A stretch of 62,036 nt of DNA, the filler included, from Vannella sp. (taxonomy: Eukaryota), in the NCBI GenBank assembly GCA_023345925.1. It is 7 parts of 7 records of this genome, joined end to end, with 100 filler letters (N's around TTAATTAATTAA, not from the genome) between each part and the next. Parts side by side here need not be neighbours in the genome. Positions count along the whole stretch, not along the records: positions 24,396 to 38,603 come from JAJQQN010001455.1; 6 more parts are not named here. One strand, given 5' to 3'. The position numbers and the translations under genes were made by a program. The notes below the pieces were generated by a model. The model was not told where the DNA came from. It did not search any database and saw only the letters and a list, made by a program, of their open reading frames with translations. Shown piece after piece: positions 10,747 to 44,839 of this stretch. The first letter of the stretch is position 1. Every line of letters starts with the position of its first letter.

Positions 10747-10792
10747 GGAATACATACGTGAGCTGAAAGTGTGCGGGCTGGGTCATTTCTTC

Positions 10793-14510: not shown

Positions 14511-15229
14511 ATGACACGGTCCCGTTGCATGAGCGTGGATCATCGTGGTGCGGGCGCGGACTTCATCTCTAACACTGACTGGAGGAAAGAAAGAGTTTCT
14601 ACAGCTCTGCGGGAGCCCATTCCTCCTGTTCACTCTGCGACTGTCAGCCAGAGAGGAGATGCATCGAAACGCCTTGTCCCACTTGGGACTCCAAAGGCAA
14701 ACCCATCAGTGACGCCAGCAGCGATCAAGGAGGAACCACCAGTCGAAGTCCTGCTTCGGAAGGGTGTGCGGCTCCCTGAGAAGAAGTCACGCCACTCTTC
14801 AATCAAAGACTTTCGTTTGTACCGTTCCATTGTAGATCGGAGGAAGGTGGAACACCGCAGGTCCATGGGTGGTGCAACACTCACCTTGTCTGACACCCAT
14901 GTGGTCTCTGAACGCCGGATAGGGTATGACAAGAGCAGGCATAAAGCAACCATGAAGAAGCGCACGTCAAAGTGAGTACATCGCTCTCCTCCTTCCCTTT
15001 GCTCACTCAGGTGGGTGTCAGGTTGCCGACACAACCAGATGCAGGGGCATGCAGAGAGGACATAGTGCGCACAAAGGCGAGGATTGAACGACAACGGCGT
15101 AAGACCTCAGAGAAGATAGGCCCACTAAAAGATCTGCCATGGGAGGATCTGGTCCACCTTCACATCAGCCTCCGGTTACGTCTCAAAAGCCTGGAAGAGG
15201 TTTTACTCTCTTCAAACAAACCTAAATGA
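14511..15229 (+). CDS. Orphan protein, paralog B; 1 intron
   Basis: MTRSR start, SSIKDFRLYR, last exon EDIVRTKARIERQRRKTSEKIGPLKDLPW..HISLRLRL. Phase-2 intron at the same position as in paralog A. Confidence 0.75.
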
Positions 15230-21360: not shown

Positions 21361-21850
21361 ATGGGACGATGAGAAAGGTGCACGCCATCTTTTCAGATCA
21401 ATCGAAGCACAGTCGTTAAGGGGCCAGAATGGTGGTGAGTGAGAGGATTCTTGTTCGTGGAAGACTGGGACTGAGGGATATACATACATCTCCACTCCTT
21501 CCGGCACCCCTTTGCAGCTACATTGAAGCTGGTGACTTCAAAAACGCGGTCAAACTCATCAAGGATCCGAATACAAATGTGGATGTGGGCATCTCTAATG
21601 GAGAATCTGCTCCCCTCGCATCGTTTGGGTGAGCGAAATGGGACATGCAGAGGTGCTCGAAGCTCTTATGGCTCGCAAGGACGCCAGAATCTGCAAAGGG
21701 GTGACAGTCCTTTGGACAAGCATCGACAAAGATTGAGTGATGCCTGGTTGGTGAGGTCCAGTGTTTGACCCCGCCTTTTGGTGAAAAGAACGAGCAGAGA
21801 GCTTTGAATACAGCATTCAAATTGGACTTTTTGGAAGGAGTGGAATAAGG
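21361..21850 (+). pseudogene. Degenerate ankyrin cluster copy 2
   Basis: Homologous to 22152-23497 (PLCSYIEAGDFKNAVKLIKDPNTNVDV), with a frameshift before PRIVW..GHAEVLEAL, missing internal exons and a premature stop after DFLEGVE. Confidence 0.75.
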
Positions 21851-22151
21851 CTGAGTCCAATCAGGGTCATCCTTCTGTGTTTGGCTTATCTAAAGTGTTC
21901 ATCTCATACTAGGACTTCGTCGCAACTCTCGAAACGTACGATGATCAAGTTTGGGCAGAGCCCTTTCGCTTTTTTCAGAAAGCGAATAAAAAAAAAAAAC
22001 ACCCCCGTCCACGAGTGACATGTTTGTAATCAGCTTCTGAGCCTTTCATTAGATTTTTTAACACTCCTCACGGCCCTGGAACAAAATATCTCACATTCCA
22101 TGTCCAAAAGCGAAAAAAGTCGTTCAAAGTCGGGCAGCTTTTGTGGGGATC

Positions 22152-23497
22152 ATGGGCAAGGCAAGTGCGGTGTTGCGCTTGGGTCGCTCTGGAAAGAAGG
22201 CGACAGAACCACTAAGGGGCCAGAAGTTGGTGGTGAGTGGACGGCTGCTCGATTCTCAAACACTCGGCTGAATCAAGGTGTAGGAAGGCACTCCTTTGCA
22301 GCTCTGCTGCGAAGCTGGTGACTTAGAAAAAGCTGTAAGGCTCATCAATGATCCGCACACTGATGTGGATGTGCGTATCTCCATTGGAGAAGCGGGGGCT
22401 TGCTTCCCTCGCATCGTTCACTGGGCGTGCGAAAACGGACATGTGGATGTACTCGAAGCCCTTTTAGCACGTCGTGTAGACTGCCAAAAGACGGTAAGAC
22501 AAACCTTCCCCTCCTGTTGGAGTCTGACCCTGATTGAAAGAATGGGATTGGAGTGAGTTCGTCTTAGCTTCCTCTCAATGGCCTTACCTGAGGATTGACT
22601 AGGAAACCCCCATCCAAGTAACAATTCGTTATGGGCATCTCAGAGTATTCAACCTTCTAGCGCCTTGCTGCAAGCCTGAAGATCTTTTAGACTTGGCAGT
22701 GAAGTACAAGCAAATCTCCATTCTGGAACAAGTGTTGGAACAGTACCGAGTTGTATTGGGAGATAACCAGTTGGTGAGTGATATTTGGCATTCAGAGATG
22801 CCCTTTTTGATCAAGAGGACGAGCAGGAGAGTGCCCTGTACGAAGCAGTCTATTTGGATTTTTTGGAAGGAGTGGAAGCTATTTGCAGGACCGTCGAGAG
22901 TCTGCTACAAGGGGTGAAGTTCACATCTCCCTACTCAACTCCACTGACGAAATAGGACAGGAGATGGGGGTAAAGGAGCCTGTCAATCGGTTAGAGTACT
23001 GACCTTTGAGAAGAGAGGTGTCGTAGAAAGAGCTTTCAATTACAGAAGGCCAAGTTCCATCAAGTTCCTGCTAGGACGTCCCGATATCGACCCCAACCCC
23101 AACCACCCCCAAGATTATTCAAAAGTGAAGCTCTTCTTTCACGTTTCCTCTGACTTGGACTGATCTGGATCAATAGCACGCGCTCTGTTTGGCATATCGA
23201 CACGAACTGTTGGATGAAGCAATGATGCTTGTTAGTCATGAACGATTTGAAGTACCAGACTTGGACATTCTGGTAAGGCTCACCGTCAATTCACTTACAA
23301 GCAGGTCACTTCCGGAACTCAACCACTTGCAGAGAGAAATATTCAAACAACCGGGCCAAAGGCCACCAGAGTTCCGGTTGAACTTTGCCAGAATGCTATG
23401 CCAACTCCTGAATGTTGTGGCGGGAGACATTGTGGGGGAGGACGATGCTATGTTTCCTCTTCTTCCTGCTAACAAGAAGAAGTCTGCGTACAAATAA
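22152..23497 (+). CDS. Multi-exon ankyrin-repeat protein, cluster copy 3
   Basis: MGKASAVLRLGRS, TPLQLCCEAGDLEKAV, IVHWACENGHVDVLEAL. Ends NKKKSAYK*. Intactness of all exons was not fully verified. Confidence 0.8.
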
Positions 23498-23843
23498 GGC
23501 CTCTGATTGCTCGAAACATCCCTCGCCGTTCCCTTGAGGCCAAGCTATTACAGTCAACCGCTCTAGCACTAGTTTAAACATTTCAGCACTCCATTCTGAT
23601 ATGTTGGCAACACCTCTCTAACAAAGAGGTGCAGTGGCAAGGAGAAGTCCGTCTTAGTGAGTCTCAGAAGAAAGGAGCTGGTTAGAAAACACCTTCTTCC
23701 ATGTCCGACCTTTTAGTCTTTGTCAGCCCGTCCTCAATGGGCAGACCAATTGTAAAGTGCCGGAAACTTCATCTGCAGAAGCGAGATCCAAGAAGGAGAA
23801 GTCGTTCAAAGTCGGGACTTGCGGGACAGCTTTTGTGGGGATC

Positions 23844-24125
23844 ATGGGCAAGGCGAGTGCGCTTTTGCGCTTGGGTCGCTCTGAGAAGAAGAAGGCAGAG
23901 GAGGTAGTTAGGAGGCCATTACGGGGGCTTAAGTGCGTGGTGAGGGAGCGTGCGTTCGTTTCTCGAACACTTTGTTGAATCATGGTGCAGGAGGGCACTC
24001 CTTTGCAGCGCTGTTGCGAAGCTGGTGACATCGAAGAAGCCGTCAGGCTCATCAATGATCCAGAGACTGACGTGGACGTGCGCATCTCCAATGGAGAAAC
24101 GGAGATATGCTTCCCTCGCATCTAA
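23844..24125 (+). pseudogene. 3'-truncated ankyrin cluster copy 4
   Basis: Exon 1, intron and start of exon 2 closely match copy 3. Homology stops abruptly at CFPRI-TAA. Confidence 0.78.
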
Positions 24126-24295: not shown

Positions 24296-24395
24296 NNNNN
24301 NNNNNNNNNNNNNNNNNNNNNNNNNNNNNNNNNNNNNNNTTAATTAATTAANNNNNNNNNNNNNNNNNNNNNNNNNNNNNNNNNNNNNNNNNNNN
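24296..24395. other. Artificial contig linker
   Basis: N44-TTAATTAATTAA-N44. Confidence 0.98.
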
Positions 24396-27300
24396 TGAGA
24401 TCAGCTTTTTGATGATCTTCTGACATTCAGGAGCATTTACCAACTCGTGGTTTACGAATCGGATGGTGACTGAAGATCCAGCGCCAATTCCAATTGCTCC
24501 AGGAATAGGAAGGGGAATCACCAGGGGGGAGCTTTCTTCGGCAGACCATTCGGGATTGGGTTCCCAATCTATCTTGCGCGGGAACTTTGTCTTATCGTTG
24601 ATCTGAACACGAGCCTGGAAGTCGATTGAGTAGTCTTGGCCCGATTGGTACTTGGGATTATCAATCTTAGTGGACCAAACCTGCTGGCCCTTTTCCAATG
24701 CCTTACTGAGGCTCAGGCAATCATTGATGTCGTAAGGCTTCATACTTTCATCGTCATCCTGCCAAGAAAAGATGAACTTCGGTACTTCCATGGTGGGAGC
24801 TTGCGTATCTCTGAGTTCCGACTCTAAGCTTCCAGTCGAAAGCCCAAACTCCGTTTCGAGGGAATCAATCAGATTCTTAAAGCGCCCTTGAGTTGACTCC
24901 ACCAGTCTTATCACCTTCAGGCTTCCTAGGTCGACATTGGTTGCTTTTTTAATCGCACCAGCGATGATTCCACAAATCCTTTCCTCGATCTCAGCTCCGG
25001 CTTTGTTGAAGATGCCTGAACTTATCAACGGGATAGCGATGGATCGGATGTTGAGCTTCTTTGCCGCATCCAGTACTTTGACAATCAGACTCTCAAGAAC
25101 AATCTCGGCAAGGTCAAGATCACTCGATTTCTCCCAAGTGGGACCAACCGCATGGATGATGTGTTTGACTCCTTGGTTCGCAAGATTTCCGGACTCACCA
25201 ATCCGGATTCCACCTTCTTGAACCGGACCGTTGACAGAAACATCCAGGTGGGAACTAGCTTGGATGTCAGCTACCCTCTGAATAGCTTTTGCGACACCCC
25301 CACTATGCTGAAGATTGCTGTTTGCCGCATTAACGATAGCGTCAACTTGTTGTCTTGCAATGTCTCCGCGGAGGGCTTCAATTGTTACTCCAAAGACTTT
25401 CTGGCGATAGCCAAGGCGGTGGGGCTTCTCCGAATGGGAAGAGTTGCCTAAATCCACCCATGTTCCAGTGCGATTCGCAAACTCGTTCAGTTTGGTCTTA
25501 TACTCTTCGAGTAAGAAGGCCTCCTCTTCTGCAACAGGGAAACTGATAACCTGGAAGTTCTCTTCCATCTTTTTCACATAAGCGGAAATCCGCTTCGATG
25601 CCTCAGAGACCATGGATGCCGGACCCTGGAGGGTGTAAATGTGCTTGCCTGCTGCTGCAGCTTTCAATGTTACCTGTGGGTAATGCCGCATTTCGTTGTC
25701 GAAGAACTTTTTTACGCCTTTTTTGCATGCTTGACGGCAAAGTGGGAAGCCTTTCATATCCACTTTAGCAGACTCTTGACGTTGTGAAGTAGTTCCAGTA
25801 AGTAATGCGGTGATTGCATCGATAGAGTTCTGTGGGCCGATGAGCTGCAGAGACAAGGCATCGTAATCGGAGATAAGCTCAGTGGAGTACTCTGTCATCA
25901 AGTACTCAAGTTCAACGTTCTTGTTGGCTTGAAGCTCCTTTAACTTCTTCGCAGTCATGGGCAATGTGACACTCTGAATGTTCAAAGCCTCAGCACGTTC
26001 CAGGGCGGCATCAACCTGGTCGACTTCCCCAATGAAGATCACTTTGTCTGGTCGGCGGATACCACACACAGATAAATCCTCCCATGCACTAGAGAGAAGT
26101 AGCTCCATCCTGTTCTGAGAGACTCTGACTTTGAAAGGCTTCGTAACTAGATCGATGTCTAGTCTCTCAAATGCAGCATCCACATTCTCTTTCAAGCCTT
26201 TGATACGGTATCCATAGCCACTTCCCTTTGCAGCGGCCTTCTTCTTTGGATTCGGTTTGAAGAGCTGAATCCGAACACTGCAGACCTCTTCTGTCTCGCG
26301 GCATAGTTGTTGCCCAGGTTCGCTCCACCAAGCAGGGAGCTCTTGTGAGAGATTGATGGTTGCGGATTTCTCCGCGTGTTCTTGGAGCCACTTCTCCACA
26401 AGTTCTACTTCCGAATCAAGCGAAGAGACAAAACCACTCAGGACGATTCCTCCTTCATCTGGATTCGGAATAGCTTCCACAGCTGGGTCAGTGAAACCGA
26501 AACGGTTCTTCCAATCAGTTTGTTTCTGCTCTGCAAGGCGCCTCACATCTGCTTTGCATTCAACAACTAGCTTTAGGTATTGTCGCTTACTGAGGTCACT
26601 AATGGCCCTCTGAAGTTCCATTCGGAGGCTGTCCGGAGCCAAGGCAATCACCTGAGTTCCTTCAAAACCAAAGAAGAAGTCAGGATACAGCTTTTTGCAC
26701 CAGCTGACAGTCTCTTTTGTTGACGAAGAGGCCCTGAATGACTTTTGGCAGACCGTCGTTTGCCAACCCTGGAGATTCACCTTGTCTTCGAAGAGCTTGA
26801 AACAGACAGTGCAGTTTTGTCCATTCCTCTTAACTTTGAGAACGTTCGTGGCTTCCCAGTCCTTGACTGTATCTGGTTCGCACTTGCGGAAGAAGTTCCA
26901 GTAGAGCAGAGTGATCGGAAAGTCAAAGGTTTCGTGTTCGTCATTCTCATCGTAATCGTCATCCTCCTCTTCCTCTTCCTCTTCCTCAAGCTTGATGGGC
27001 TTCACTTTCACTCTCTTCTTTGCTGAAGTCTTTGGTTGAGGTGTGCCTTGAATGGGAGGGGTCCCCGCTTTGTTCTTTTGATTGGGTCTTTTGGGAGTTC
27101 TCACTCCCCCTCCGTTCGTGGTACGAGGGCCCTTCTTAGTAGGAGGGGGAGGTGCGTGACGGAATCCGCATACTTTCGTACAGCTGTCTTTCATGAAGTG
27201 CATGCAGTTTCGCCCCAGCTTTGGTGGAGCAGCGGGCACCTGCTTTCCATGTGCATCGAGAATGGGGTGGTCGTCGAGGCACTTGCGGTCATTACAGCGA

Positions 27301-27578
27301 GACTTGAAGCGGCAAAGAGAACCAGTGTAATCCGGTCCTGCAGAGGAAGCCTGTCGAGGTGTTGGTGGTTGGGAGCCTCCATCTTCTCCACAGTGGCGGT
27401 TCCTGCAACCGGTTCCATATGAACACAAGTTGTTTAGATGGTACCTGCAGTTCAGTGCAGCCTCGGCGGTAGCAGCAGGTCGCTCCGCACCATTAACGAA
27501 GACGGTGTGGACCAAGTTGCAAGCTTTGTCCGCACAACGAGAGCGATTGGGGCACTTTCTCAGGGAGTGCGGCTCCAT
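24396..27578 (-). CDS. CCCH zinc finger x4 - KH-like repeats - macrodomain - WWE protein (PARP14/PARP9/ZAP-like); C-terminus cut by the contig end
   Basis: Four CCCH fingers; KH-like segments (YRIKGLKENVDAAF, LQLIGPQNSIDA, YTLQGPASMVSEA); macrodomain GDIARQQVDAIVNAANSNLQHSGGVAKAI..IIHAVGP..IAIPLISSGIF; WWE-like FSWQDDD..KPYD..YSIDFQARVQIN..RKI. Confidence 0.88.
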
Positions 27579-27898
27579 AGACCGGTTCCCAGAGGGCTCC
27601 AACAGGACCATGAAGGAGGGGGAAAGGTGAAAATGGCTCATCCAATGAGAGGAAGGGATGAATAAAAAAAGGGCCAGTGATTGGCTGGAAAAAATTGCTG
27701 CTCTCGGGTTAGTTAGCATTAACATAACTCTTGTAAAATTGATTAAAAGTCAGACACTGTTATCCTGCTGGCTATTGTTCTAATCGGAATCTTTCGAAGT
27801 TTTTTTTCCTTGAAATGGTCGTTTTGGTTTAGGTGCACCTCCTCTCCTGGGCATTTGTTTGTTGCGAGGCGTCTGGGGTCAGTAATCTGAGAGTGGAT

Positions 27899-30800
27899 AT
27901 GTCAGGTGACCTTTCAGCAACAAAGAAGGCGCACGCCCTTCTCAAGCAGAGGCAGTCTTCGGTTGTGTCTCTGCGCTCTTCTGCAAGGAGAAGCTCATCC
28001 GCTGGTGTCGAGTCTGTTGAAGGCAAAGAGGCAGCTTCTTTGGTTCCTAAGTCACCCGACAACATCCAAGAAGCCCCTTCCAAACCAAAGAAAGCCGTGA
28101 AAGGCATCCCTTTCCTGGCTGTTGAAGAACCACCGTCCTCTCCCGCAGCTTCTGATACATCAGAGAGCAAGATAGGAGCATCCACGGCCTCTTCCAATGG
28201 GGAGCAGCCGCCCAAGAAACCCAAGAAGCCGAAAAAGTCGACCAAAGGAGCTAACAAGGCTGCGGAGGAGCCCTGGTCCATCGCCCAACCCGCGTACCGT
28301 TCTACAAGCTCAGAGGAATCTCTAAAAGGAGGGTTCTTCGTCCATCCTTCCTCATCAAACGAGACACGCGGCCGAAGCGTCTCCGCCTCCTCTCGAGAGG
28401 AGACTTTCTTCAAGACCCCGCCTTCCACCGCCATCCTGTCACCTCCTGTGACAGGTGGTGGTGACCTAATTGTCCCTTTCACACGTGACCAAAGGAAGAG
28501 CCAAGCCCCAGCGGTTGAGCAACGAAAGGGAGCGCTTTCCTTCGATGTCGAGGAGTTAGACGAGAGCCCCGAAGCAGGTCACTCCAAGGACAAGCCAGTC
28601 ATGTCACGACGCAAGCGTATCAAGAGCTTCAGTGTCAACGCAGCTGGCTCGGCTGTGAACTCGCTGAGGTCGAAGAAGACAATCTCCCGCAAAGCCAAAG
28701 ATGACGCGTCCGGAGTGAGCCCTTCTGAGGGATCTCCTGCTCTAAGCCCTCGTGAGGAAGACAACCAGGCGTCAGAGGAATCCTGTGCCAAGAACTTCCA
28801 GCAAAACAGCTTGGCCGTCTCGCAATCCTTAGAGAAGCGGAATAAGTCTCCCAGGGTTGCTTCTGTAGTCGAGGAGGAGGCTCCCAAGGAGCCTGAGACG
28901 ACGCTTTTGAAGGTTGACAGTACTTTCAATAAGCCCCGCGTTGCGCGCGTTGAGTTCCGGCCAGAGAACATCATGAAGGCTTTTGAGATCACTCCCCGCA
29001 CTTCTCCTTTGGAGGCTTTCCATTCAATTATGGCCAAGATGAGCAAAGGACTTCCCCCAGAGAAGCGGGACACGTTGGTGGCCAAGTACGCCAAGTATGC
29101 CCTCTACCGACAATTGGGAGGTGACGAGATTCAAGAAATCTATGAGGATGAACCCTTACTGTCCCCTTTGCAGGTGGTAGGAGGCAATACGCCAATGTTC
29201 CTCTTCACTGACCAAGCAGTTCTCAAAGGGGATCGTCCAGAAGAGAGCGGTCGATGTTGTATTAACTTTGGCAGCTTATTGCAAGAAGCTCACATGAAGG
29301 AGGAGAAGAAAGCGGACAACGCAACGGACGAACTCGTCATCACCGAGAGGAAGTTCCTTTTTGACACAGACTTGCTCCTGCAAATGGTCCTCAAGCCACT
29401 GTGTGAGGAGGACATTATTCCTGCTAAGACCCGCAGCAAGATCTTCTTGAACATCAGACAAATCAACTCTTTCCACCGCGAGTTATATCGCCGTTTCCAG
29501 ATCGATAATACTGTTGCAGGCATCGCAGCAGTCTTTGATGAAGGGACGTTTGCAGATTTGGAGAAAGTGTATACAACCTTCCTGGGGAACTATGAGAGCG
29601 CTCTTGCTGTCTTCTATGAAACTCGAGACCACTCGGAGAAGTTTAGAAAATTCCTGGCTCGCCTCTCTGCCGAGAGTCCTGTCTTTAAGGACCGCTCACT
29701 CAACAACCTTTTAGTGACTCCCATGCAGCGTGTGTGCAAGTACGAGCTGCTTATCAAGAATCTCATATCCCAAGAGAAGAAACGTCCCAAACCGGATGAA
29801 GTTGCCGTCAAGAAGCTAAAACGCGTTATGGCCAAGCTCAACAGTACTTTGCAGATGATTGACCGCCGCCGTGTCGAAACAGATGAGTGGAGTCGAATCT
29901 TGCAGTTGGAAGAGAAGCTGGGACTGCCAGAACCTCTGCGAAAGCGTGGGCGAATCATCGTGGCTGAGGGCACCTTTAATACCTCCCGGCGTCAGTTTAC
30001 AGGCAATCTTACCTCTCGAGTCTGCACAGTCATCTTGTTCAATGATATTCTCCTCCGGGTGTACAAGTCCAACACGACAGCGCAGTATAAGGTGGAAGAT
30101 ACTTGCCAATTGAATCACCTGGTCTTGATTGACCCCTTCTCCATCTATGCAGCCGAACCTCACACGATTATCCTCTGTAGTAAGGATCCACGAGGAGCTA
30201 TCTTTACGCTCTACTTGGGCTCAAATGAGGAGCGGCAAGAATGGCACCAATATTTGGTGCGCTACACCATCCCGATGAATTTGTTCTGCCAAGAACTGCT
30301 TCATAATCCCTCTGGTGAAGCTTCTAGTCAAGAGATTATCTTCGCAGTGGACAACTGCTCTTGGGAGGAAGCGTTTGTTGAGCGGTGCCGGGTTATGGTG
30401 ACTACCAGCCGACTTGTTCTTCTCTGGGAAGCATTTGGGATGACTCAAAGCGAGATCATTCCTCTCCAAAGCATCACAGACATTGAAGGAAACAAAGATA
30501 CTGGCGAACATATCAGCACCAACCTCTGGACTGAGAATTACAATCTCAATAAGTTCAATAACTACTCCAACTTCTCGAGTGTCTTCCACAATGTTTGGCA
30601 ATCTTCCAGAAAACGGAAAAAGCTGGAAGAACCGAAGAGTGTGCCGTGCCCACTGCCTAAGGCTCCAACTCCATGGAGCAACTTTACTACCTTGAGCAAA
30701 GAGGAGTGGAAGAACATTTGGAAAGTCTCTCAGACCATCGAACTGAAAGCTGACGAAGTTCTACTTTCTCTGGGGAAGCCAAACGAATGTCTCTATATGG

Positions 30801-31063
30801 TATCCAAAGGGAGCGTTATTCGCAACACCGCCAATGAGGAATCCTGCACTCTCACGAAGGGCCGCATGTGCGGCGCTTCTTCGTTCCTCTTGGAAGGAAG
30901 TATGTCCACAGAAAGGGTCATTGGGGGAGGAGAGGGAGCGTCACTCCGCTGTAAGTCTCGAAAGGACATTCTCGACCATCTCGCCGCCAACCCTTCTCTA
31001 TTGGCGAAATTCTTTGCGACAATCTCTCGCAATCTCCTGGAGGAAGAACAAGCCTGCCAATGA
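27899..31063 (+). CDS. Dbl-family RhoGEF (DH-PH) with GRAM-like and degenerate cNMP-binding domains; intronless
   Basis: DH ELVITERKFLFD..LLVTPMQRVCKYELLIKNL; PH LFNDILL..ERQEW; GRAM-like RVMVTTSRLVL..IIPLQSITDI; cNMP-like IELKADEVLLSLGKPNECLYMVSKGSV. Confidence 0.88.
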   Translation: MSGDLSATKKAHALLKQRQSSVVSLRSSARRSSSAGVESVEGKEAASLVPKSPDNIQEAPSKPKKAVKGIPFLAVEEPPSSPAASDTSESKIGASTASSNGEQPPKKPKKPKKSTKGANKAAEEPWSIAQPAYRSTSSEESLKGGFFVHPSSSNETRGRSVSASSREETFFKTPPSTAILSPPVTGGGDLIVPFTRDQRKSQAPAVEQRKGALSFDVEELDESPEAGHSKDKPVMSRRKRIKSFSVNAAGSAVNSLRSKKTISRKAKDDASGVSPSEGSPALSPREEDNQASEESCAKNFQQNSLAVSQSLEKRNKSPRVASVVEEEAPKEPETTLLKVDSTFNKPRVARVEFRPENIMKAFEITPRTSPLEAFHSIMAKMSKGLPPEKRDTLVAKYAKYALYRQLGGDEIQEIYEDEPLLSPLQVVGGNTPMFLFTDQAVLKGDRPEESGRCCINFGSLLQEAHMKEEKKADNATDELVITERKFLFDTDLLLQMVLKPLCEEDIIPAKTRSKIFLNIRQINSFHRELYRRFQIDNTVAGIAAVFDEGTFADLEKVYTTFLGNYESALAVFYETRDHSEKFRKFLARLSAESPVFKDRSLNNLLVTPMQRVCKYELLIKNLISQEKKRPKPDEVAVKKLKRVMAKLNSTLQMIDRRRVETDEWSRILQLEEKLGLPEPLRKRGRIIVAEGTFNTSRRQFTGNLTSRVCTVILFNDILLRVYKSNTTAQYKVEDTCQLNHLVLIDPFSIYAAEPHTIILCSKDPRGAIFTLYLGSNEERQEWHQYLVRYTIPMNLFCQELLHNPSGEASSQEIIFAVDNCSWEEAFVERCRVMVTTSRLVLLWEAFGMTQSEIIPLQSITDIEGNKDTGEHISTNLWTENYNLNKFNNYSNFSSVFHNVWQSSRKRKKLEEPKSVPCPLPKAPTPWSNFTTLSKEEWKNIWKVSQTIELKADEVLLSLGKPNECLYMVSKGSVIRNTANEESCTLTKGRMCGASSFLLEGSMSTERVIGGGEGASLRCKSRKDILDHLAANPSLLAKFFATISRNLLEEEQACQ

Positions 31064-31137
31064 GTTAGTCTCTGATAGTGTCAAAGTTATTTAATAAGTG
31101 TCCTTCTTCCTGTGGAAAGACGGTCTTTTAAATCCAT

Positions 31138-33603
31138 CTATTTGTACTTGCGGCCTGATGATTGGGAATCTGACTTTCTCTTCTTTTTGTTCTTCAGTAG
31201 CGCTGATGATTGGGACTTGAGAGAGGATTCAATGCGTTGGTTGCAGATCTGTTGGAGAACTTGGGCGGCATCTCGGTCAAGGAAGGAAGAGAATCTCCAA
31301 GACAGCCAAAGATACAAGTCCAGTACAGCATATGCGTTCTCTACCATGTCCATGTCCCCGCTGCACATGTCCTCGTCGACACCGAGAGGGACCTTCTCTA
31401 CTTCTTCCTCCTCTTCTCCTAAGATAAGGGCACTTCTCGAGGGTCTGGTAGGGAGAATGTCTTTGCTTCCTTGCCGACTAGAAAGTTCAGAGAACTGCTG
31501 AGCGTATTGACGCAGAAAACGCATCACAAAGGGGTTCGAAGTTTGACAGGGGGAAAGACAGAAAATGTACCGATCTTTCAGTTGCAACGGAATGTCGTCA
31601 ATTGCCTTGGCAATCTGCAACAGACTGTCAAACCCACACAAGAAGAACTCATTGTCCACCGTAGCTAAAGCAGTAAACTCTTCCAGAATCTCTGAGAAAG
31701 GCATTTCAACTCCATCTTGTGCCGTCCCCAGCGCAAAGAGTTCGATTTGCTCATAAGCAGGAAGGATGCCAGCAAATGGAGACTGCTTCAGTGAAGCTGA
31801 GATGGATTGCTGAATGAGTTTTTGGTGATCATTATCGAAACTTGTGGCAAAGCCAACAGGGTAGATACTCTTGAACCGACCGGCGCGTCCTGCAATCTGC
31901 TTGAGCTCGGCAGGAGCGAGTGGCCGGTCTGATTTGCCATCGAACTTGACCACGTCAGAGAAGACAACGCGTTTGATGTTCAGATTGAGTCCCATTCCGA
32001 TGGCGTCAGTGGCGACCAGAAACGGATAATCGTTCTCTGGTTCATTGAAGAGCTTCGCTTGCTGAGAGCGAGTCTCTGGTGGAAGTCTTCCATAAACAAC
32101 GCAGCATTTCTGCTTCAGCTCTCGTTCAATCTGGTTCTTGATGGCGAAGATCTTCGAGCGCGAAAAGGTAATAATACAATCACCCCGTTTGAGATCGTAG
32201 ATAGTCTCTAGGGGCTCTTGTGGCACCTTCAATGGAGATAGCCTTGTGTATTCCTTGATCTCCAACTCATCCCCACAAGCATTGACGATCTCCTTGATGA
32301 CATCAATAACCGTCTCATTCCCGCAAAGATGAATTTCTCGCGCAGGGATGCCCAGAAGTACTCTGGTCCAGGCCCAACCACGATCAGGATCACTAATCAT
32401 CTGAATCTCATCAATCACAGCGCAGTGATAGAGAGTGTCGGTTGGCGCCATCTCGACGGTGCACGATAAATGAGTTGATTCCTCTTCCAGGTGGCGCAGC
32501 TGCCCCGTCAACAGGTTAATTGGAACGCCTTCCACCTGAAACTTCTCATAAATCTCCTGTGCTAACAGTCGCAGAGGCCCACAGTAGACACCCGAAGCGG
32601 CTTTCTTGAGGGCAACCAGACCTGCGTGGGTCTTCCCTGAGTTGGTGGGGCCCACGTGAAGGATAACCTTCCGTTTCATCTGTCTAGCTAAAGGGTACCA
32701 AAGGTGGGGGTTGCACAGGTTCGCCAGACGCTCAGGAACCTCATTCAATAAAGTGTCTTTCTCTCTTCGGTTGGATTTTGAGGGCTTTGGGGATCGTAGC
32801 TTAGTGTAGGAGAGGTTGTCGCTGCGAGAGAAGAAGGCTACGAAGATGGGAGTGAGGATTTGGGAAACCTGCGGCTCAGGAAGTTTGGAGTCAATGCCCA
32901 ATTCATCGAATTCAGCAGAGGAGAGCAGGGAATGAGCGCTACACTGGAACCTAAGTAGATTAGGGTATATCATCTTCATGCTCCTTCTCATATACGCTGT
33001 CTCCAGCTCTTCCACAGTGATATCCGGTACAATCTGTCTCATAACATCTCGTAGTGTCTGCGGGCGGAGGCAGTATGAAGCGAGGTGTTCGCTTATTACA
33101 GCACTGAAGTCTGATCGACGTGAGGAGGAGTGATAGATGCTCTCGTAGTCTTGGGGGACTCGAAGCTCGAGGAAAGGCTGATAAATCTCTGGGTGGTCAT
33201 CGAGCAGCTCTGTCATAGCACGATTTTGCGAGATATGCATATCAAGTACTGCCTGAGTTAGGTTTGGATGAGCTCCGTGGATGATCTGAAGAGAACCAGC
33301 CGTTTCTTCAAGCTGAAAGTGATTGGAAGCTTCCTTGTACAGTTGAGAGAGTGTGTAACTGGTGTCCTTGATCATAAACGATGCCGTAAGCTTTCCATAC
33401 TTGACTATGACCTCCTGGGGTGCGGGTTGTGAGCAAAAGCGCATCCTTTGAGTGTGGGCAGCCTCCCTTGAAGTGTTTAGCGTTGCGTACACACTCTGAT
33501 TACCCGTACGGAGAAGGTTTCTCGAAGGTTTGTTAGCTCTCAAGAGCTGGGAGCCTACCCTGCGCCAAGCAAGCAAAGAGGAGCTTCCAAGATGCCGCAG
33601 CAT
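31138..33603 (-). CDS. SUPV3L1: Mitochondrial ATP-dependent RNA helicase SUV3
   Basis: GPTNSGKT, YCGPLRLLA, DEIQ, RGWAWTR, ATDAIGMGLNLNI, QIAGRAGR, and a presequence-like N-terminus. Confidence 0.96.
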   Translation of the reverse strand: MLRHLGSSSLLAWRRVGSQLLRANKPSRNLLRTGNQSVYATLNTSREAAHTQRMRFCSQPAPQEVIVKYGKLTASFMIKDTSYTLSQLYKEASNHFQLEETAGSLQIIHGAHPNLTQAVLDMHISQNRAMTELLDDHPEIYQPFLELRVPQDYESIYHSSSRRSDFSAVISEHLASYCLRPQTLRDVMRQIVPDITVEELETAYMRRSMKMIYPNLLRFQCSAHSLLSSAEFDELGIDSKLPEPQVSQILTPIFVAFFSRSDNLSYTKLRSPKPSKSNRREKDTLLNEVPERLANLCNPHLWYPLARQMKRKVILHVGPTNSGKTHAGLVALKKAASGVYCGPLRLLAQEIYEKFQVEGVPINLLTGQLRHLEEESTHLSCTVEMAPTDTLYHCAVIDEIQMISDPDRGWAWTRVLLGIPAREIHLCGNETVIDVIKEIVNACGDELEIKEYTRLSPLKVPQEPLETIYDLKRGDCIITFSRSKIFAIKNQIERELKQKCCVVYGRLPPETRSQQAKLFNEPENDYPFLVATDAIGMGLNLNIKRVVFSDVVKFDGKSDRPLAPAELKQIAGRAGRFKSIYPVGFATSFDNDHQKLIQQSISASLKQSPFAGILPAYEQIELFALGTAQDGVEMPFSEILEEFTALATVDNEFFLCGFDSLLQIAKAIDDIPLQLKDRYIFCLSPCQTSNPFVMRFLRQYAQQFSELSSRQGSKDILPTRPSRSALILGEEEEEVEKVPLGVDEDMCSGDMDMVENAYAVLDLYLWLSWRFSSFLDRDAAQVLQQICNQRIESSLKSQSSALLKNKKKRKSDSQSSGRKYK

Positions 33604-33720
33604 GGAGAACGCGAAGGGGAGCTGGAGAATGAGGAGAAGGACCAGTTTAGAAGAGAGGTGAGATGAAGTTTATGAGTGATCAAGCGCATCTGGGTGCTGT
33701 ACAGGGAGGAGGGGAGGTCA

Positions 33721-34307
33721 CTACTCTGCTTGTGAGGCAAACTGCTTGGGATTGGCATTCTTGGCCGTGTTCGACGTGTCCAAGTTCTTGTGGAACCATG
33801 TGGTATCATTGAATAGGCGATTATCCTCTGGGTCGCGCTCCTCGAAGTACATGGGGCGATCGCCATAAGAGTTCGCCTTGACGTGAAGCTTGTGAGAAAC
33901 CTTCACCAGAGTCCCTTCCATCTCCCCTAGGAGAGCCTCATAAGGGTTACGGTGGTATCCGTTCATCTCGTAGTTATGGGCTGGGGTCATCGTGCCTTTG
34001 AAAGAGATGTTCTTTTGCCTTGCGTAGAAGTCTAGTCGCTTGAAGTATCGGTAAAAGCTACCCACCCCGCATTAGTCCCTACCACGGCTATACCACCCGC
34101 GCTTGCTTACTAGTCATCTCGGGCTACAAAAGCAGCGCGCACGTAATAGATGGAGTTGCGCTTGACCTGCTGCATGTACGAGTGCGAGAGAGAAGCTCTC
34201 CACGCTTCATACTGGGCGTCCGAGCTGTGCTCTTTGTAAACCTCGGGCCGGTACGCTCTCGACTGGCCTCCGCCCATCAAGTCGTTCCAAACAATGCCAA
34301 AATTCAT
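33721..34307 (-). CDS. Hypothetical protein; 1 intron
   Basis: A phase-2 GTAAGC...GGTAG intron (about 34060-34110) joins the two ORFs in frame (ARDDY-FYRYFKRL). Confidence 0.65.
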
Positions 34308-34382
34308 TGATTTAATTCAGTCTCCGACAAAATTAATACTCGACCAATAATGGAGCATTTCCTTGGTGTCTGGTTGCGAGTG

Positions 34383-35102
34383 ATGTCTTTGGACGAGCAG
34401 AAGAGGTGTTCGGCTTATCGAGCTGTGGAGGAGGAGGCGCGTTCGTGTATGCGGATTGGAGTGGGAAGTGGGAGCACAGTGGTGTTTGCTGCAGAGCGTC
34501 TGGGTCAGCTCTATCAAGAGGGGACTTTGGTCGACATTATCTGTGTTCCCACCTCGTTCCAAGCTCGTCAGTTGATACAAAAGTACAAGCTCCCTCTGGG
34601 AGACTTAGAAACGAGCCCTCAGTTGGACGTGACCTTTGACGGGGCAGATTCCATCGATCCTCATCTCAACCTCATTAAGGGAGGGGGCGGAGCGTGCGTC
34701 CAAGAGAAGATTGTGGCTATGTGTAGCAAGAGGCTTGTAGTCATCAGTGACGAGTCCAAGAAAGCGCCTATCCTAGGGAGCAACTGGAAGAAAGGTCTCC
34801 CAGTCGAGGTCATTCCGATGGGCTATGCGCCAACTATCCTTCTTCTAAAGGAGAAGTTTGGTGTAGAAGCAGAACTGCGCATGGCTGAGAAGAAGGCCGG
34901 GCCTGTCGTCACAGATAACGGCAACTTCCTCTTGGACATCCACTTCCAGTGGGCTTCCATCAAGCCAGAAGAGTTGGACGCCTTAGACATCTCTCTCTTA
35001 CGTATGGCCAGTGTGGTACACACGGGATTCTTCATACAAATGGCCCAGGTAGCCTACGTGGGACTGGCAAATGGGAGTGTGGAGAAGTTAACTCCGCTGT
35101 AA
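34383..35102 (+). CDS. RPIA: Ribose-5-phosphate isomerase A
   Basis: IGVGSGSTV, DGAD, LIKGGG..QEKIVA, LPVEV, GPVVTDNGNF. Confidence 0.96.
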   Translation: MSLDEQKRCSAYRAVEEEARSCMRIGVGSGSTVVFAAERLGQLYQEGTLVDIICVPTSFQARQLIQKYKLPLGDLETSPQLDVTFDGADSIDPHLNLIKGGGGACVQEKIVAMCSKRLVVISDESKKAPILGSNWKKGLPVEVIPMGYAPTILLLKEKFGVEAELRMAEKKAGPVVTDNGNFLLDIHFQWASIKPEELDALDISLLRMASVVHTGFFIQMAQVAYVGLANGSVEKLTPL

Positions 35103-35182
35103 TTCTCCTGGAGGACATTCTGAGACTTCTTAACGATGTCAAGTCTCTTAATGAAGAAGTTCTTTATCGAGGAAGCGTCTCC

Positions 35183-37626
35183 TCATGCCTCACTCTGCTG
35201 GAGTTCGGATTGGATGGGCTCTTTGGTCTCACAGATAGTCCGGAACTCCTTCAGCAACTCCAATTGAGTGCCAGGGGATTGCAGAACGAAGGAGAAGTTG
35301 ATCAGTCGTGATGCAGTGCTCAAGTGGCGCAAAAACTTCTTGGTTTCGAGAGGGTCCATGTCGTTCCAATGCAAAGACTGGAGAGAAGGGTTCGAGGCAA
35401 TCGTCAGATGCATGGAATAGAGCCCTTTAGGGGGACTCTCAAGGTTAACGATATCTCTGATAACATGGTTATGCTCAAAGAACATGTCCAACTCTCGCAC
35501 ACAAAGAATAGGACCAGAAAACTCCAATCGTTCAATACTCTTATTCTTTGTGAGAGCATCCATCAGTTGCACAGCAGCATCTGACTCTTCCAACCAAGGG
35601 ACACCAAACGACTTGAGAAATTTGTCCTCCTTCAACTGCTTCGCCCATGGGAAAGCCTTGTCACAGGAAGGGGAGACAAGGTCATTGTGACTTAGATCAA
35701 GATCCGTCACGGATTGGTTATGAAGGAAGAACTTTTGCATGAAGTTGGATGTGACTAATCGGTTCTCTCGTAGACGGAGCTTAGTCATGGACGGGGTTCC
35801 CACCAAAGCATCAGCAATTAGTGAGCAGTGGTCTCCGAGATACTGGCGAGTGAGATCCAGCTCCCTTAGAGTGCTGTTGTTGTTCATCATCATTGAGATT
35901 TCTTCAACGACAGAAAGGGAGCTAGGACTACCCACTGCCAATGTAGAGGGACGATCTGTGAGGTAAAGACATTCCAAAAGCTTCTTCTGGGCAATCCCCT
36001 TGCACAATGCGATGATACCTGACGGACCTATCTTACAGTTCCGTAGAGAAAGAGTCTTCAACGAAGCGTTTTCGGCCAACGCCTCTGCAAGTTGCTCAGC
36101 ACCTCGATTGCCGATGTGGTTTTCGTTCAAATAGAGCTCCCGCAGGTTCTGGTGAGATTTCAAATGTGGCGTCAAGTTGATAATAGCCTGAGCAGCTTTG
36201 GGATGCTTGCGGAAGCAGCGGGAGAGATCTAAAGTTACCAAAGTGGGAATTCTAGAAACCAGACCCAAAAGTGGCTCGTCTATGGAGATAGAGATGCCTC
36301 CTGTCACATAAATGCTTTGCAGGGTGCGGTTGTTGGTAGAGAACACCTCAATGTCTTCGTTATCACAGTTATGGCCTTGATAGGCACCCAAGTAGAGATC
36401 CTGAAGGCTCCCAAGATTCTGTGCAAGAGTCTGCAAGAGACTGCGGAACCCATTGTTACGGAGGGATCCTCCTGAAGCAGAGGAGAGATCAACCATGCGG
36501 ATGTGACGGTTCTGCTCCAAGAGAACGCTCAGTACTTCGCAGTTTAGCGTGCTGTGACCGGCGTAGATGTCTGGAATGTCATTGCTTCTGAGAACGTGTG
36601 TAAACCAACCAGTACTGAAGCGGTTAGAGGAGAAGGACTTGTCGTTCTTGCCCGAAGGCTTCCGATCCAGTTGGGAAACCTCCAAGAACTCGTCCAGGGC
36701 CTGAATGACCTTGGCTAGAGTCTCGTCCATTGATGCCAAAGCAGAACCCGAGTCATTAGAGTCTGAACTGCGGCTGAGGGTGGCTGGAGAAGGCAAGAGA
36801 ACAAGCTTTTGCTTGACCCACGCCATCACCCGTTGCATAAACTCATCAAAGATCGCGATGCGCTCCTCAATCACAGGCTGGCAGGTAGCACGGCCTGGTA
36901 AGAAGGTACGGGCAGGGAATGGGTAGCTTTCGAAGTCAGGATGGAGCTTCTTCAAGCGCTGGTAGAAGTTGCGGAGGTCCCGGTAACGTTTGGGGACTGC
37001 CCACGAGTTCTCCAGCCCAACTTGCTCTTCGTTCTCTGTCTCAAGTTCACATATGATCGCATACTCCTATCAGGAGGTGAGTAAGACGTGAGGGGGAGGA
37101 GGAAGAGGGCGGCGTACAATGAACTCCTTCTGGTTGTCTTCGTAGCAGCGATAGAACTTGCAGACGGTCACTTCAAGTACATTCCAGCAACGGTGCTCAG
37201 TCCATGCGCGCTGTTCAGACAAGGGAAGGGCCACAGGAGCAGGAAGAGCCAGAAAGTCTAAGAAGCGAGCTGGATTCCTTCAGAAGCCGTCAATCCCCAT
37301 ATCGTGGCACAACAGAGGCTCCCTCACCTCCCTAGAAGTACCTCTGCATAGGCTACAAAGACAGGATACCGCAAAAGGCGCCGAACCTGACCTTTCGGTT
37401 GCAAAAGAGCAGTTTCCACCATCTGCCCCAGCTGGGCGTTCAGCCTCTCACGTTCAGGCGTGGGATACACAGGTAGCAGCGCCCTTCCTTCCCCAAACAA
37501 GCGCTCCAAGCGGGCCACATCCTCTTCCGGAAAGGGCAAAGGCGCGCCGGGGACGGCGTATGGGCGGCTCATCCCCTTTGGAAATGAGTTCGTTGCGATC
37601 ACAAGCGCACCCTCCAAAGGGCTCAT
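35183..37626 (-). CDS. PX domain + RNI-like leucine-rich repeat protein; both ends tentative
   Basis: PX WAVPKRYRDLRNFYQRLKK..FPARTF..IEER; LRRs LRELYLNENHIGNRGAEQLAEAL, LKTLSLRNCKIGPSG. Two introns join the upstream exons in frame. Confidence 0.8.
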
Positions 37627-37876
37627 TATTCATTCAGATGGTGCGCTAGGGTGGGAGATGATCCGAGCTTCTCCTCCGTTCCGTCCTCAATCCCTGTCTG
37701 AGGCTGTTTGGTACAGCTACTGAGAGGTTCCTGCAAGTCAGCATGGCAAGCAAGAAGGAGGGGTACACCCCGCCTTCACTGTTCCTCGTTCTTGCTCGAA
37801 CTGTGAACGAGAAGAGATCGAAGAACACCCACCTGGCCCTCCCAATAGCCACTTATCGGAGATAGTAGAGTGAGCT

Positions 37877-38452
37877 TCATTGTGCAGAGCAATCACGCTT
37901 GCTCCTAGCTGTGGTGTCGGATCCGCTCTTGATCCTCGCTGGGTTGTCTTTCTGGATCTCACGAACCAGCTCGAAGAAGGCCTCTTTGACGTTGATGCCA
38001 GTCTTGGAAGAGGTCTCGTAGAAAGGGCAGCCCAAGGACTCGCTCAGGCTCTGGCCTTCTAAAGCAGACACTTGTCGTTCGTCCTCCAGGTCACACCTGT
38101 TCCCCACAAGGACCATGGGCACCTTGTCTGTACCCTTCACGCAGAGGATGAGATCACACAAGGTGGTTATCTCGTCAAAGGAGCTTCGGGAGGTGATGGT
38201 GTATGTGCAAAGGAAGCCTTGTCCTGTGCTTGTGCGCTGCTCGTGGGTGTGGAAGCTCTCTCCTTGGCCAGCTATGTCAAGAACATCAAGCAGACATGAC
38301 TCATCGCCGATGGTTTCCTGTTTGCGGAAAGTATCTTCCTGGATCTCCAGACAAACATAATCGCCCGTAAACTGACCGTGCACAAACTGGTGGGTCAAGG
38401 CAGTCTTGCCAACACCCACTCCTCCAACAACTACAAGCTTGTACTCCGTCAT
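37877..38452 (-). CDS. Divergent Ras-subfamily small GTPase with CaaX (CSAQ); intronless
   Basis: MTEYKLVVVGGVGVGKT, DIAGQ, TGQGFL, LVGNRCDL, ETSSK. Confidence 0.93.
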   Translation of the reverse strand: MTEYKLVVVGGVGVGKTALTHQFVHGQFTGDYVCLEIQEDTFRKQETIGDESCLLDVLDIAGQGESFHTHEQRTSTGQGFLCTYTITSRSSFDEITTLCDLILCVKGTDKVPMVLVGNRCDLEDERQVSALEGQSLSESLGCPFYETSSKTGINVKEAFFELVREIQKDNPARIKSGSDTTARSKRDCSAQ

Positions 38453-38603
38453 TGGTGTCACAGCCCCAATGTCCACGACCAAGACCTTCGAAAGAGTTCA
38501 CGGCCCCAGTAAACCACGCCCGCTGCACGGTTGAAAAATACCTCTTAATTCGATCGGGACCTTTACCAATGAACTTTTTATGTGTTTTGGTTGAGGTACT
38601 TTT

Positions 38604-38703
38604 NNNNNNNNNNNNNNNNNNNNNNNNNNNNNNNNNNNNNNNNNNNNTTAATTAATTAANNNNNNNNNNNNNNNNNNNNNNNNNNNNNNNNNNNNNNNNN
38701 NNN
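38604..38703. other. Artificial contig linker
   Basis: N44-TTAATTAATTAA-N44. Confidence 0.98.
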
Positions 38704-38760
38704 TGGTAGAGCGGTCGACTGCAGATCGACAGGTCACCGGTTCAAATCCGGTTGGGTCCT
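38704..38760 (+). tRNA. tRNA-Cys(GCA), 5' end cut by the contig start
   Basis: D-loop TGGTAGAGC; anticodon arm GTCGA-CTGCAGA-TCGAC; T arm ACCGG-TTCAAAT-CCGGT; U discriminator; downstream T-runs as Pol III terminator. Confidence 0.93.
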
Positions 38761-38814: not shown

Positions 38815-39634
38815 ATGTCCATCTACACTAAGACGGGAGACAAAGGATCATCCTCGCTCTATTCTGGAGAGCGAAGATCGAAGGCAGATAAGATCTTCTA
38901 TGCTCTTGGAGCCATCGATGAGCTTTCGGCTCAATTGGGGTGAGCGCAACTTTCGTTTGATCGCTCCTGTCTCATCCTTTCACCAGTGTCGCACAGGTTC
39001 ACTGCCAGAACGACAAAAACGTCGAATTGGTAGATCTCATCACGGAGGTAGGTGACCTACCAACGGGAGAACCTCCTGTTCACCATAACTGAACTGATCC
39101 CTCGCAGATCCAGTCCCGCCTCTTTGATGTGATGTCCAACGTGGCCACTCCAGTGGAGTCTGCGTCAGAGACCAAAGTCAACCGAACCTCCTTTCCTTCA
39201 GCAGAGGCTGAGATGCTGGAGAAGCGAATTGACGACTTTGACAAAGTGTTGCCCAAGCTGACAAAGTTCATCCTCCCAGTGAGTGTTTTCCTCCACTGTC
39301 TCCGTGCTCTGAGGGCCAGTACTCACGTGTCATTCTCAAGAGTGGAGGTTTGTCGAGCACTCAACTCCACGCAGCTCGCTCTGTTTGCCGGAGGGCTGAA
39401 CGTGAGATCGTGAACTTGTGGGAAGGTGAGCTCGAGGATCACTCGTCCGTTCTGTGTTACATGAACCGCCTCTCCGACCTTCTTTTCATGATGGCCCGAA
39501 GTGCCTGCTTCCACTTGGGAGCCGAAGAGATCACCTACCAGAAAGGCAAAGGCTTGCAAGTGAGCGAATCCAAGCCTGAGGTCATCCAAGCTGATGATGA
39601 TGATGACGATGATGATGATGAAGAGGACCTTTAA
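38815..39634 (+). CDS. MMAB: ATP:cob(I)alamin adenosyltransferase (PduO/MMAB type); 3 introns; acidic tail
   Basis: [69 protein letters not shown]. Confidence 0.93.
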
Positions 39635-43593: not shown

Positions 43594-44250
43594 TCATGAG
43601 AGAGAAAAGTTGAAGCTGGAAGAGACCTCTGGGAGGGGCCAATCGATTGAATACGAATGGGGCTCAGAGGAACTGAAGAGGATCTCGTTCAGATCGGGTC
43701 CCTCGAGAGGACCACAACCAGGAAGACTTTCTGGAAGGGGGAAGATACTGCAGAGGGGTCCACCTGGGGAAGAGGCACTGCCTTCAAGTGTCCAGCCGCT
43801 TTCGCACCAAAGTACGGTGAAGTCGGGGAAGTTAGGCTGGACCAGTTCGAAGACCCAAAGCTTGAAGGAAGGAACTGGTCCATCTAATGAAGAGAAGTCT
43901 GGAGATCGAGATGTGACCCTTTTGCGACGAGGACGAAGCTTGGAGATGGAGATGGCACTTTCATCTTCGTTTGTGAGTTGAATGCGACAGCGAGTCTGGT
44001 TCCATCTCCAAGAGATGCCGCTGGGAATCTCTTTGGCTGCTATCTTCTTCGAGAAAGATGTCACAGCGCCTTGATCCCAACAAGACTCGGTGATGCGGTT
44101 GGAGAGTTGGCGTCCTTGCCAGTGAGAGCTTTGTTCATAGAGGACCTTAAGAGCTCTTCGGTAGTCTGCACTTAGGTTGTGGCGGGTGTGGTACGTCCAG
44201 ATGGGCCGCATGGTTGAAAAAAAGACTGGAGTTGCCAACCTCGCATCCAA
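43594..44250 (-). CDS. Hypothetical protein with an unrecognised Trp-rich basic domain; 5' part interrupted by a duplication
   Basis: 218-codon ORF with WRWNQT, KLRPRRK, KLWVFEL and LWCESG, followed by a Ser/Pro-rich tail. Confidence 0.55.
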   Translation of the reverse strand: MDARLATPVFFSTMRPIWTYHTRHNLSADYRRALKVLYEQSSHWQGRQLSNRITESCWDQGAVTSFSKKIAAKEIPSGISWRWNQTRCRIQLTNEDESAISISKLRPRRKRVTSRSPDFSSLDGPVPSFKLWVFELVQPNFPDFTVLWCESGWTLEGSASSPGGPLCSIFPLPESLPGCGPLEGPDLNEILFSSSEPHSYSIDWPLPEVSSSFNFSLS

Positions 44251-44839
44251 TCGAGATCAAAATTGATTCTCAGAAAGCCAGCGATCATCGTCCTCACAAA
44301 AGGAAATTTCCTAAACACGTCTTTCGGTCCTTTTCTGGGCGTTTCAATGGTCGCACCATCAAACTCCAAGAGGTCAGTCTTTGCTTTGAAGCGTTTCTGC
44401 TGGCATAGCAACAGCTCTGGTAGGAGCTTTCCGGCACTGTCCACCACCTCAGCAGTGGCCTTCTTTCGCTTAGAAGCACGCTTAGACGGTTCGGGAAGCA
44501 CTTGAATCGCTGAAGCTCATCCCTCGTTGCGATCCCTCCTCGAACACTATTCTCACGCAGCGCTTGATAAGTCTGTTCCTTTGCAAACAGCCCCTTTACG
44601 AAGTGCGCTGTTTGTTCAAAGCGCTGCTGTTCTTTGAGCAAGAATCAGATCTCGAACATTCATACCCCGATCGCGAAGTGGCTTGGATGATCGCAAACTG
44701 TGCGGCATCCTATAAAGTGACTTAGGTTGTGGCGGGTGTGGTACGTCCAGATGGGCCGCATGGTTGAAATAAAGACTGGAGTTGCAACCGCAAGATTCAC
44801 CAAATCAATCGAGATCATTTGATTCTCAGAAAGCCAGCG
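44170..44839. repeat. Direct repeat of about 115-120 bp (44170-44283 and 44720-44839)
   Basis: ACTTAGGTTGTGGCGGGTGTGGTACGTCCAGATGGGCCGCATGGTTGAAA.AAAGACTGGAGTTGC is nearly identical in both copies, followed by an indel-diverged segment ending GATTCTCAGAAAGCCAGCG. Confidence 0.92.

Follow-up and report, generated by a model that had tools for sequence, protein, structure and literature searches.

The window, a stretch of 62,036 nucleotides of Vannella sp. DNA, encodes a divergent Ras protein of the RasG type (P0001; 37877..38452, minus strand). We conclude, with a probability of roughly 0.55, that P0001 is an atypical Ras paralog, likely GTP-loaded and GAP-resistant, which has become uncoupled from the classical Ras partners. 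By sequence and fold, it is a Ras family small GTPase. The ORF extends from ATG to TGA (191 amino acids, no intron needed) with no stop codon or frameshift, and its sole indel is in frame. The match to the Pfam Ras family (PF00071) had an E-value of 1.5e-42 (145 bits against a cut-off of 21.6). The best sequence matches in PDB were Ras, KRAS and HRAS, and the best Foldseek matches of the predicted structure were Rap1B, Ras and KRAS (E 1e-17).

Changes in the nucleotide-binding motifs and switches

The P-loop (G1) of P0001, GGVGVGKT (38402..38425, minus strand, as are all features of the gene), carries G12V (codon 38417-38419) and S17T, with G10, G15 and K16 retained. The G3 motif DIAGQ (38264..38278) has T58I and keeps D57, A59, G60 and the catalytic Q61; the G4 motif NRCD (38090..38101) has K117R and keeps N116 and D119; and the G5 motif ETSSK (38003..38017) has A146S and keeps S145 and K147. 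An earlier note on this DNA had listed equivalents of G12V, T58I, K117R and A146S; an alignment with KRAS located all four, and S17T in addition. The same alignment, which has a two-residue gap at switch I, and comparison with homologues confirmed the rewriting of the switches that had also been described. Switch I (38333..38359) reads YVCLEIQED in place of YDPTIED as a result of a 6-nt in-frame insertion. E37 and D38 are retained there, followed by S39T and Y40F, and T35 is lost in any register, with no Thr between Y32 and D38 in YVCLEIQEDTF (canonical YDPTIEDSY). Switch II (38225..38263) contains E62G, Y64S, S65F, A66H, M67T, R68H, D69E, Y71R, M72T and R73S.

Among the best 120 of 508 homologues, G12, S17, T35, T58, K117 and A146 were each present in 120 of 120, so the changes in P0001 are real departures; the named relatives in this set are mostly amoebozoan (dictyostelids, Balamuthia). 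When the motifs of a canonical Ras switch were considered, P0001 had the G3 DxxGQ with Gln61 and failed the other three of four: G1 with Gly12, G2 with Thr35, and G4 NKxD with G5 SAK. Overall, 57 of 168 G-domain sites differed between P0001 and the nearest canonical Ras, P0004.

C-terminal prenylation motif

It had been claimed that both the ORF and the CaaX box were intact. This held for the ORF and for the Cys at position -4, but the box itself is a non-canonical CSAQ (37880..37891), predicted to be farnesylated but uncleaved. Among 111 homologues ending in Cxxx, a2 was never Ala and X was never Gln, with Leu at X in 96; besides, the net charge ahead of the CaaX Cys was +3 in P0001 versus a homologue median of +5. 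In a yeast Ydj1 CXXX screen, which reports on yeast rather than host enzymes, CSAQ had an EF of 1.40, similar to the farnesyl-only CASQ (1.61), with canonical CVIA at 0.41; its score with a Ras reporter was 4.2 versus 16.8 for CVIA, and the family-type CALL also scored 3.8 (PMC10320760). Summary predictors called CSAQ prenylated in 2 of 4 cases and cleaved in 0 of 2 (PMC9231725). A prenylation-only motif is known to alter the localisation of yeast Ras2 (PMC9927470).

Nucleotide state and the activating-type substitutions

With G12V, hydrolysis is impaired whether intrinsic or GAP-driven; the effects of K117R are increased nucleotide exchange and lower nucleotide affinity (PMC8295990); both hydrolysis routes are also impaired by T58I (PMC7710308). 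From these mutants we infer that P0001 is likely GTP-loaded. Its hydrolysis would be impaired as with G12V and T58I, though Q61 is kept and, for this reason, some intrinsic hydrolysis may remain. Nine retained nucleotide-contact residues are suggestive of GTP binding. P0001 also shows degraded G motifs on a GTPase fold (G2 lost, and G1, G4 and G5 altered), a feature by which class ii pseudoGTPases are defined, and it would be such a pseudoGTPase if it binds GTP without hydrolysing it (PMC5593906).

On the other hand, the description of P0001 in the earlier note as a Ras with several activating mutations over-reads these changes. Of 16 hotspot positions, 5 were changed, versus 57 of 168 sites overall (hypergeometric P=0.69), and enrichment at hotspots was rejected. 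G12V, T58I, K117R and A146S are each one nucleotide away from a canonical codon. In fly Ras, G12V was suppressed by K117R, and the G12V,K117R combination was weaker than G12V (PMC10627255), and MRAS hotspot mutants, e.g. G22V, remain GDP-loaded (PMC11733253). As these examples illustrate, the effects of single mutants need not add. Furthermore, the activating alleles described in the available text of PMC8295990 include A146T and not A146S.

We also analysed 149 diverse Ras-like representatives, chosen by similarity to P0001 as query, of which 129 cover G1, G3, G4 and G5 (20 were dropped). G12 was absent in 32 of the 129, T35 in 10, T58 in 14, K117 in 7 and A146 in 6. Departures at two or more of these five positions were found in 20 representatives, at four in 3 and at all five in none; K117R occurred in 0 and A146S in 2 of 129. 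Atypical Ras-like proteins are common, and the exact combination of P0001 is absent among these 129 representatives. Among the papers listed in literature searches, none described a natural protist Ras carrying G12V or this combination. P0001 is a known sort of oddity, not a natural cancer gene.

Predicted structure and partner binding

AlphaFold2 modelled P0001 with a Ras fold (pLDDT 64.5, pTM 0.60), with runs below 50 at residues 30-38 and 64-79. A canonical control built from the same 40 sequences had a pLDDT of 76.3 and no such run before the tail, its switch II block being the weakest (54). The low values in the switches of P0001 may reflect a lack of matching alignment rows rather than disorder.

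A mutational scan of KRAS (PMC10866706, Table S5) has rows for 29 of the 57 changes and for one alternative T35 register. Folding ddG, a descriptive figure here, exceeded 1 kcal/mol for 1 of 30 (T35I, 1.5), followed by R102C with 0.93. Binding losses of at least 0.8 in KRAS were listed for S17T, T35I/E, I36Q, Y40F, T58I and Y64S with PI3K-gamma, for T35I/E and I36Q with RAF1, for T35I/E, I36Q and Y40F with RALGDS, and for T35I/E, I36Q, V44E, Y71R and A146S with SOS1. Several of these rows carry a low-confidence flag. A few changes had the opposite direction, including R68H (-0.96) and Y64S (-0.38) for SOS1, and R97C, which improves binding to RAF1 and PI3K. RAF1 tolerates Y40F, and the switch II changes mostly have small effects on their own (PMC10866706); moreover, E37 and D38 are kept in P0001. 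By analogy with KRAS, we predict that P0001 has lost binding to PI3K, RAF, RalGDS and SOS. The Ras effectors named for Dictyostelium in PMC6304742 are PI3Ks and TORC2, so the classical output of P0001 is likely lost.

Constraint on the fold and divergence of the switches

Neutral decay was simulated from the P0004 protein as a proxy ancestor, with sampled codons and no indels. The probability of having no stop codon was 0.02-0.08 at the observed divergence and 0.07-0.12 at the non-switch rate. Given no stop, several features of P0001 outside the switches still departed from neutral expectation. None of 37 core hydrophobic sites had turned polar (neutral 4.3-4.8, P 0.005-0.01). Family-conserved sites, in classes derived from representatives similar to the query, were changed in 14 of 85 cases (neutral 21.8, P<=0.003). 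The mean BLOSUM62 score was +0.14 (neutral -0.38 to -0.53, P 0.01-0.03). All nine of the G-box residues G10, G15, K16, D57, G60, N116, D119, S145 and K147 were kept (P 0.05-0.06, given no stop). These neutral-model tests show that the fold of P0001 is under constraint.

Changes were more frequent in the switches (residues 25-40 and 60-76), 22 of 33 versus 35 of 135 elsewhere (Fisher P=2e-5), and narrower bounds gave P=0.003 and P=0.056. The difference between effector and allosteric lobes was not significant (P=0.14), and the most conserved non-switch class was not significantly spared (6 of 37 versus 29 of 97, P=0.13). Fast switches are equally expected from lapsed partner constraint, which these tests do not separate from positive selection on the switches. 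Viral and genome scans with P0004 yielded only distant Ras genes; the best DNA match, 68% over 246 nt, was too far for dN/dS.

The alternative that survives best, though we regard it as rather unlikely, is a redundant duplicate under relaxed selection, whose partner surfaces drift while the core merely reflects past function or a weak selection against misfolded protein, with no present use. It would account for hotspot changes without enrichment, each of which takes a single base change, for the eroded polybasic tail and CaaX box, and for the lack of any orthologue with the new switch sequence among metagenome contigs, representatives and the hits of an effector-lobe search. Amino-acid differences among near-identical copies also fit and hint at weak constraint: compared with the window, each of three database copies has 1-3 substitutions (F67V, D124E, D187G). 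Two 79-aa database records beginning at Met113 could represent disrupted alleles; however, Met113 is the sole internal Met of P0001, so these records are explained equally well by short contigs (980-1012 nt). Knockouts of Dictyostelium RasX, RasY and RasZ are described as having no obvious phenotype (PMC6304742). In contrast, departures from neutral decay are seen in the core, the conserved sites, the chemistry of substitutions, the G boxes and the open frame, and the terminal Cys is kept together with a usable predicted farnesylation signal. We rank the atypical paralog ahead of the relaxed duplicate. Of the options raised in the earlier note, the first fits best in the form of a hydrolysis-poor atypical GTPase with non-classical partners, given that core and nucleotide contacts are kept beyond neutral expectation, the switches are rewritten and the KRAS equivalents lose binding.

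Relatives and origin

The closest relatives of P0001 were unnamed environmental proteins; among its closest canonical relatives, P0004 had the highest identity (65% over 170 aa). No orthologue carrying the rewritten switch sequence was identified in searches of metagenome contigs, viral contigs and representatives or in an effector-lobe search. The metagenome contigs yielded 3 loci from 98 stretches, none of them the variant (L001 was Rap-like), and the effector-lobe search (residues 9-80) yielded 4 candidates, none passing. Viral contigs had no match for P0001 and none for a second divergent Ras, P0312. A viral origin was rejected, as there was no viral match and the giant-virus Ras L005 grouped elsewhere. 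The latter, found in a giant-virus genome bin (L005:2001-2540), is a Ras that is near-canonical apart from a short deletion right after switch I. Eukaryote-like Ras genes were also observed in contigs of bacterial genome bins (L006, L007 and L008, two of them with spliceosomal introns), and these are probably binning contamination.

P0312, from a public contig of 1223 nt, is 52% identical to P0001 and has G12V, K16R, T35I, no DxxG and an intact CaaX box. With K16 and DxxG lost it is further gone than P0001, and its sequence makes it the stronger pseudoGTPase candidate. Of the 57 derived states of P0001, it has 14, among them G12V, S17T, L23F, D30G, T35I, Y40F, V44E, M72T, R149G and E153K; the mean over 149 representatives was 6.7 (SD 2.6), and the more distant P0411 shares 15. 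Phylogenetic analyses placed P0001 and P0312 as sisters with support of 100/99 (LG+G4, 44 rows, with a long-branch warning) and 96/90 (mixture model, 22 rows). A robust sisterhood was nevertheless set aside, as the C-terminal lobe alone leaves the grouping unsettled and AU tests keep the alternatives (P 0.44 and 0.20).

The switch I insertion starts at the D33 codon, which is an intron site in the more distant Ras genes L008 (2095-2155) and L006, and one possibility is that the insertion is an intron remnant. The suggestion that P0001 is a retro-duplicate agrees with its intronless gene, but its close canonical relatives P0002 and P0012 are also whole ORFs (on contigs of 23.4 kb and 9.8 kb), so the lack of introns may be inherited; no poly(A) run was found in the 276 nt downstream. 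It is conceivable, though doubtful, that P0001 and P0312 represent a fast-evolving amoebal Ras subfamily in which G12V was fixed early and the effector loop was shed, with permanent signalling via new partners from a farnesyl-only anchor. An "oncogenic" Ras would then be tolerated as it is unplugged from PI3K/RBD effectors, and the new switch I may have started from a D33 intron that was lost imprecisely.

Inhibitory or normally cycling Ras

Without T35, the active state of switch I is likely not stabilised. This loss, together with the poorly modelled switches, would suit a low-affinity or inactive-state Ras that acts as an inhibitor or decoy, either as a GEF/GAP sink or as a nucleotide-independent scaffold. 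The lower nucleotide affinity conferred by K117R (PMC8295990) and the weakness of G12V,K117R relative to G12V in flies (PMC10627255) point in the same direction. We consider such a role improbable: P0001 keeps K16, D57, N116 and D119, the classical dominant-negative S17N is absent, and the substitutions that reduce SOS1 binding in KRAS make a GEF sink unlikely. The decoy proposed in the earlier note is doubtful, since the GEF and effector contact residues that a decoy needs are those lost.

It is very improbable that P0001 cycles normally with a dedicated GEF, GAP and effector that evolved together with it. Q61, G60, A59, E37 and D38 are kept, and since 32 of the 129 representatives lack G12, its loss alone is no proof of lost cycling; however, G12V impairs intrinsic and GAP-driven hydrolysis, T58I does likewise, and T35 is gone.

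Genomic context and authenticity of the gene

The window consists of seven pieces of compact eukaryotic DNA with introns, separated by 100-base gaps. The Ras gene is located on the piece at 24396-38603. Upstream of its ATG, at a distance of 151 nt, is the gap at 38604..38703 (a run of N with a stop-codon spacer), past which the Ras promoter is unreadable. Other ORFs on this piece match the Macro/WWE, RhoGEF, Suv3 and LRR families, and an RpiA-like gene neighbours the Ras ORF. No second Ras was found when the whole window was scanned. GC3 of the Ras gene (0.63) was within the range of five other ORFs (0.54-0.64) and was uninformative.

The exact P0001 protein had no match in the protein collection or Atlas, and its Atlas feature matched only generic Ras-family clusters. 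A search of representatives returned a 99% identical fragment whose cluster contains P0453, an independent full-length copy on another contig. P0453 is 98% identical to P0001, differs at F67V, D124E and D187G, and keeps every motif change, so the ORF is intact in two assemblies. That the gene is an artefact of sequencing or assembly, or that its switch I insertion is really a mini-intron left unspliced, can practically be dismissed. The gene is close to a contig end (151 nt) and switch I contains an 18-nt GT...AG stretch, but the independent copy argues against an artefact. The mini-intron was rejected as the two introns of the gene at 38816-39634 are 47 and 62 nt long and excision of the 18-nt stretch would take out four conserved positions of switch I while all other changes remain. 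We conclude that P0001 is real, intact and probably constrained.

Several other features of the window were observed. At 24348-27725 (minus strand), a long ORF encodes Macro and WWE domains and runs into a gap; a PARP-like architecture is a guess. The gene with the two introns at 38816-39634 (plus strand), probably with a third, is presumably a cob(I)alamin adenosyltransferase, judging by its N-terminal motif. Just past the gap, a partial tRNA match (38707-38752, plus strand; Rfam RF00005, 24.6 bits) was below the gathering score; its anticodon was read by eye as GCA (Cys), and ARAGORN found none. RCC1-repeat genes on two pieces (1956-3075, plus strand, by eye; 10268-11881, plus strand, by Pfam) suggest expansion of this family. 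Local direct duplications of 70-86% identity were found at 21503-24122, 14044-15199 and 44170-44839. An intronless actin-like ORF (60373-61527, minus strand, 384 aa) has many changes versus conventional actin and a C-terminal extension. Its GC3 is 0.64, similar to that of Ras, and it is a second divergent intronless copy of a normally near-invariant gene. Together with the Ras gene, this ORF suggests that several fast-evolving duplicates are kept by this genome.

Proposed mode of action and comparison with known GTPases

In the atypical-paralog reading, a RasG-type amoebozoan gene would have been duplicated, and the fold core and most nucleotide contacts would have stayed while both switches were rewritten. 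If human Ras is a guide, G12V and T58I would impair hydrolysis and GAP action, and K117R, perhaps with A146S, would speed up spontaneous exchange and thus make a GEF dispensable. With T35 lost and I36, Y40, T58 and Y64 changed, binding of the PI3K/RBD type would be gone. CSAQ would provide a farnesyl-only, weaker membrane anchor. P0001 would then signal via a putative new partner, at a strength dictated by its expression level, as in Rnd and RhoH.

The parent family is canonical amoebozoan Ras (Dictyostelium RasG type; P0004, P0098), with which P0001 shares the Ras fold, N-terminus and allosteric lobe. It differs from this family at G12, S17, T35, T58, K117, A146 and most switch residues, and its CaaX box is CSAQ instead of one ending in Leu, with a weaker polybasic tail ahead of it. 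P0001 resembles Rnd1-3 and RhoH in the non-Gly residue at 12, the altered switch II, the predicted retention of nucleotide binding and the presumed expression-set output (PMC13236570, PMC5593906), and in its presumed action it is most like the always-on Rnd and RhoH (PMC13236570). Unlike them, it belongs to the Ras rather than the Rho family, keeps Q61, and has the effector loop itself rewritten. Rnd and ERas keep T35; ERas is another atypical constitutively GTP-bound GTPase. A pseudo-Rab has been reported from Entamoeba. Dictyostelium RasX, RasY and RasZ, in an amoebozoan family of 14, appear from their description to be similar lineage-specific divergent duplicates (PMC6304742). The human alleles G12V, T58I and K117R are identical residue changes at homologous sites, but they act with an intact effector loop, which P0001 has lost, and P0001 has A146S instead of A146T. 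The four changes of human-allele type represent 4 of the 57, without hotspot enrichment.

P0001 is a rare combination in a common sort of protein, and the understanding of the Ras family is unchanged. If the preferred reading is true, P0001 would be a natural Ras that joins G12V, T58I and K117R with a lost T35, i.e., a ready-made test of how these changes interact and of the route by which a duplicated Ras drops out of the PI3K/GAP/GEF circuit behind amoeboid feeding and movement.
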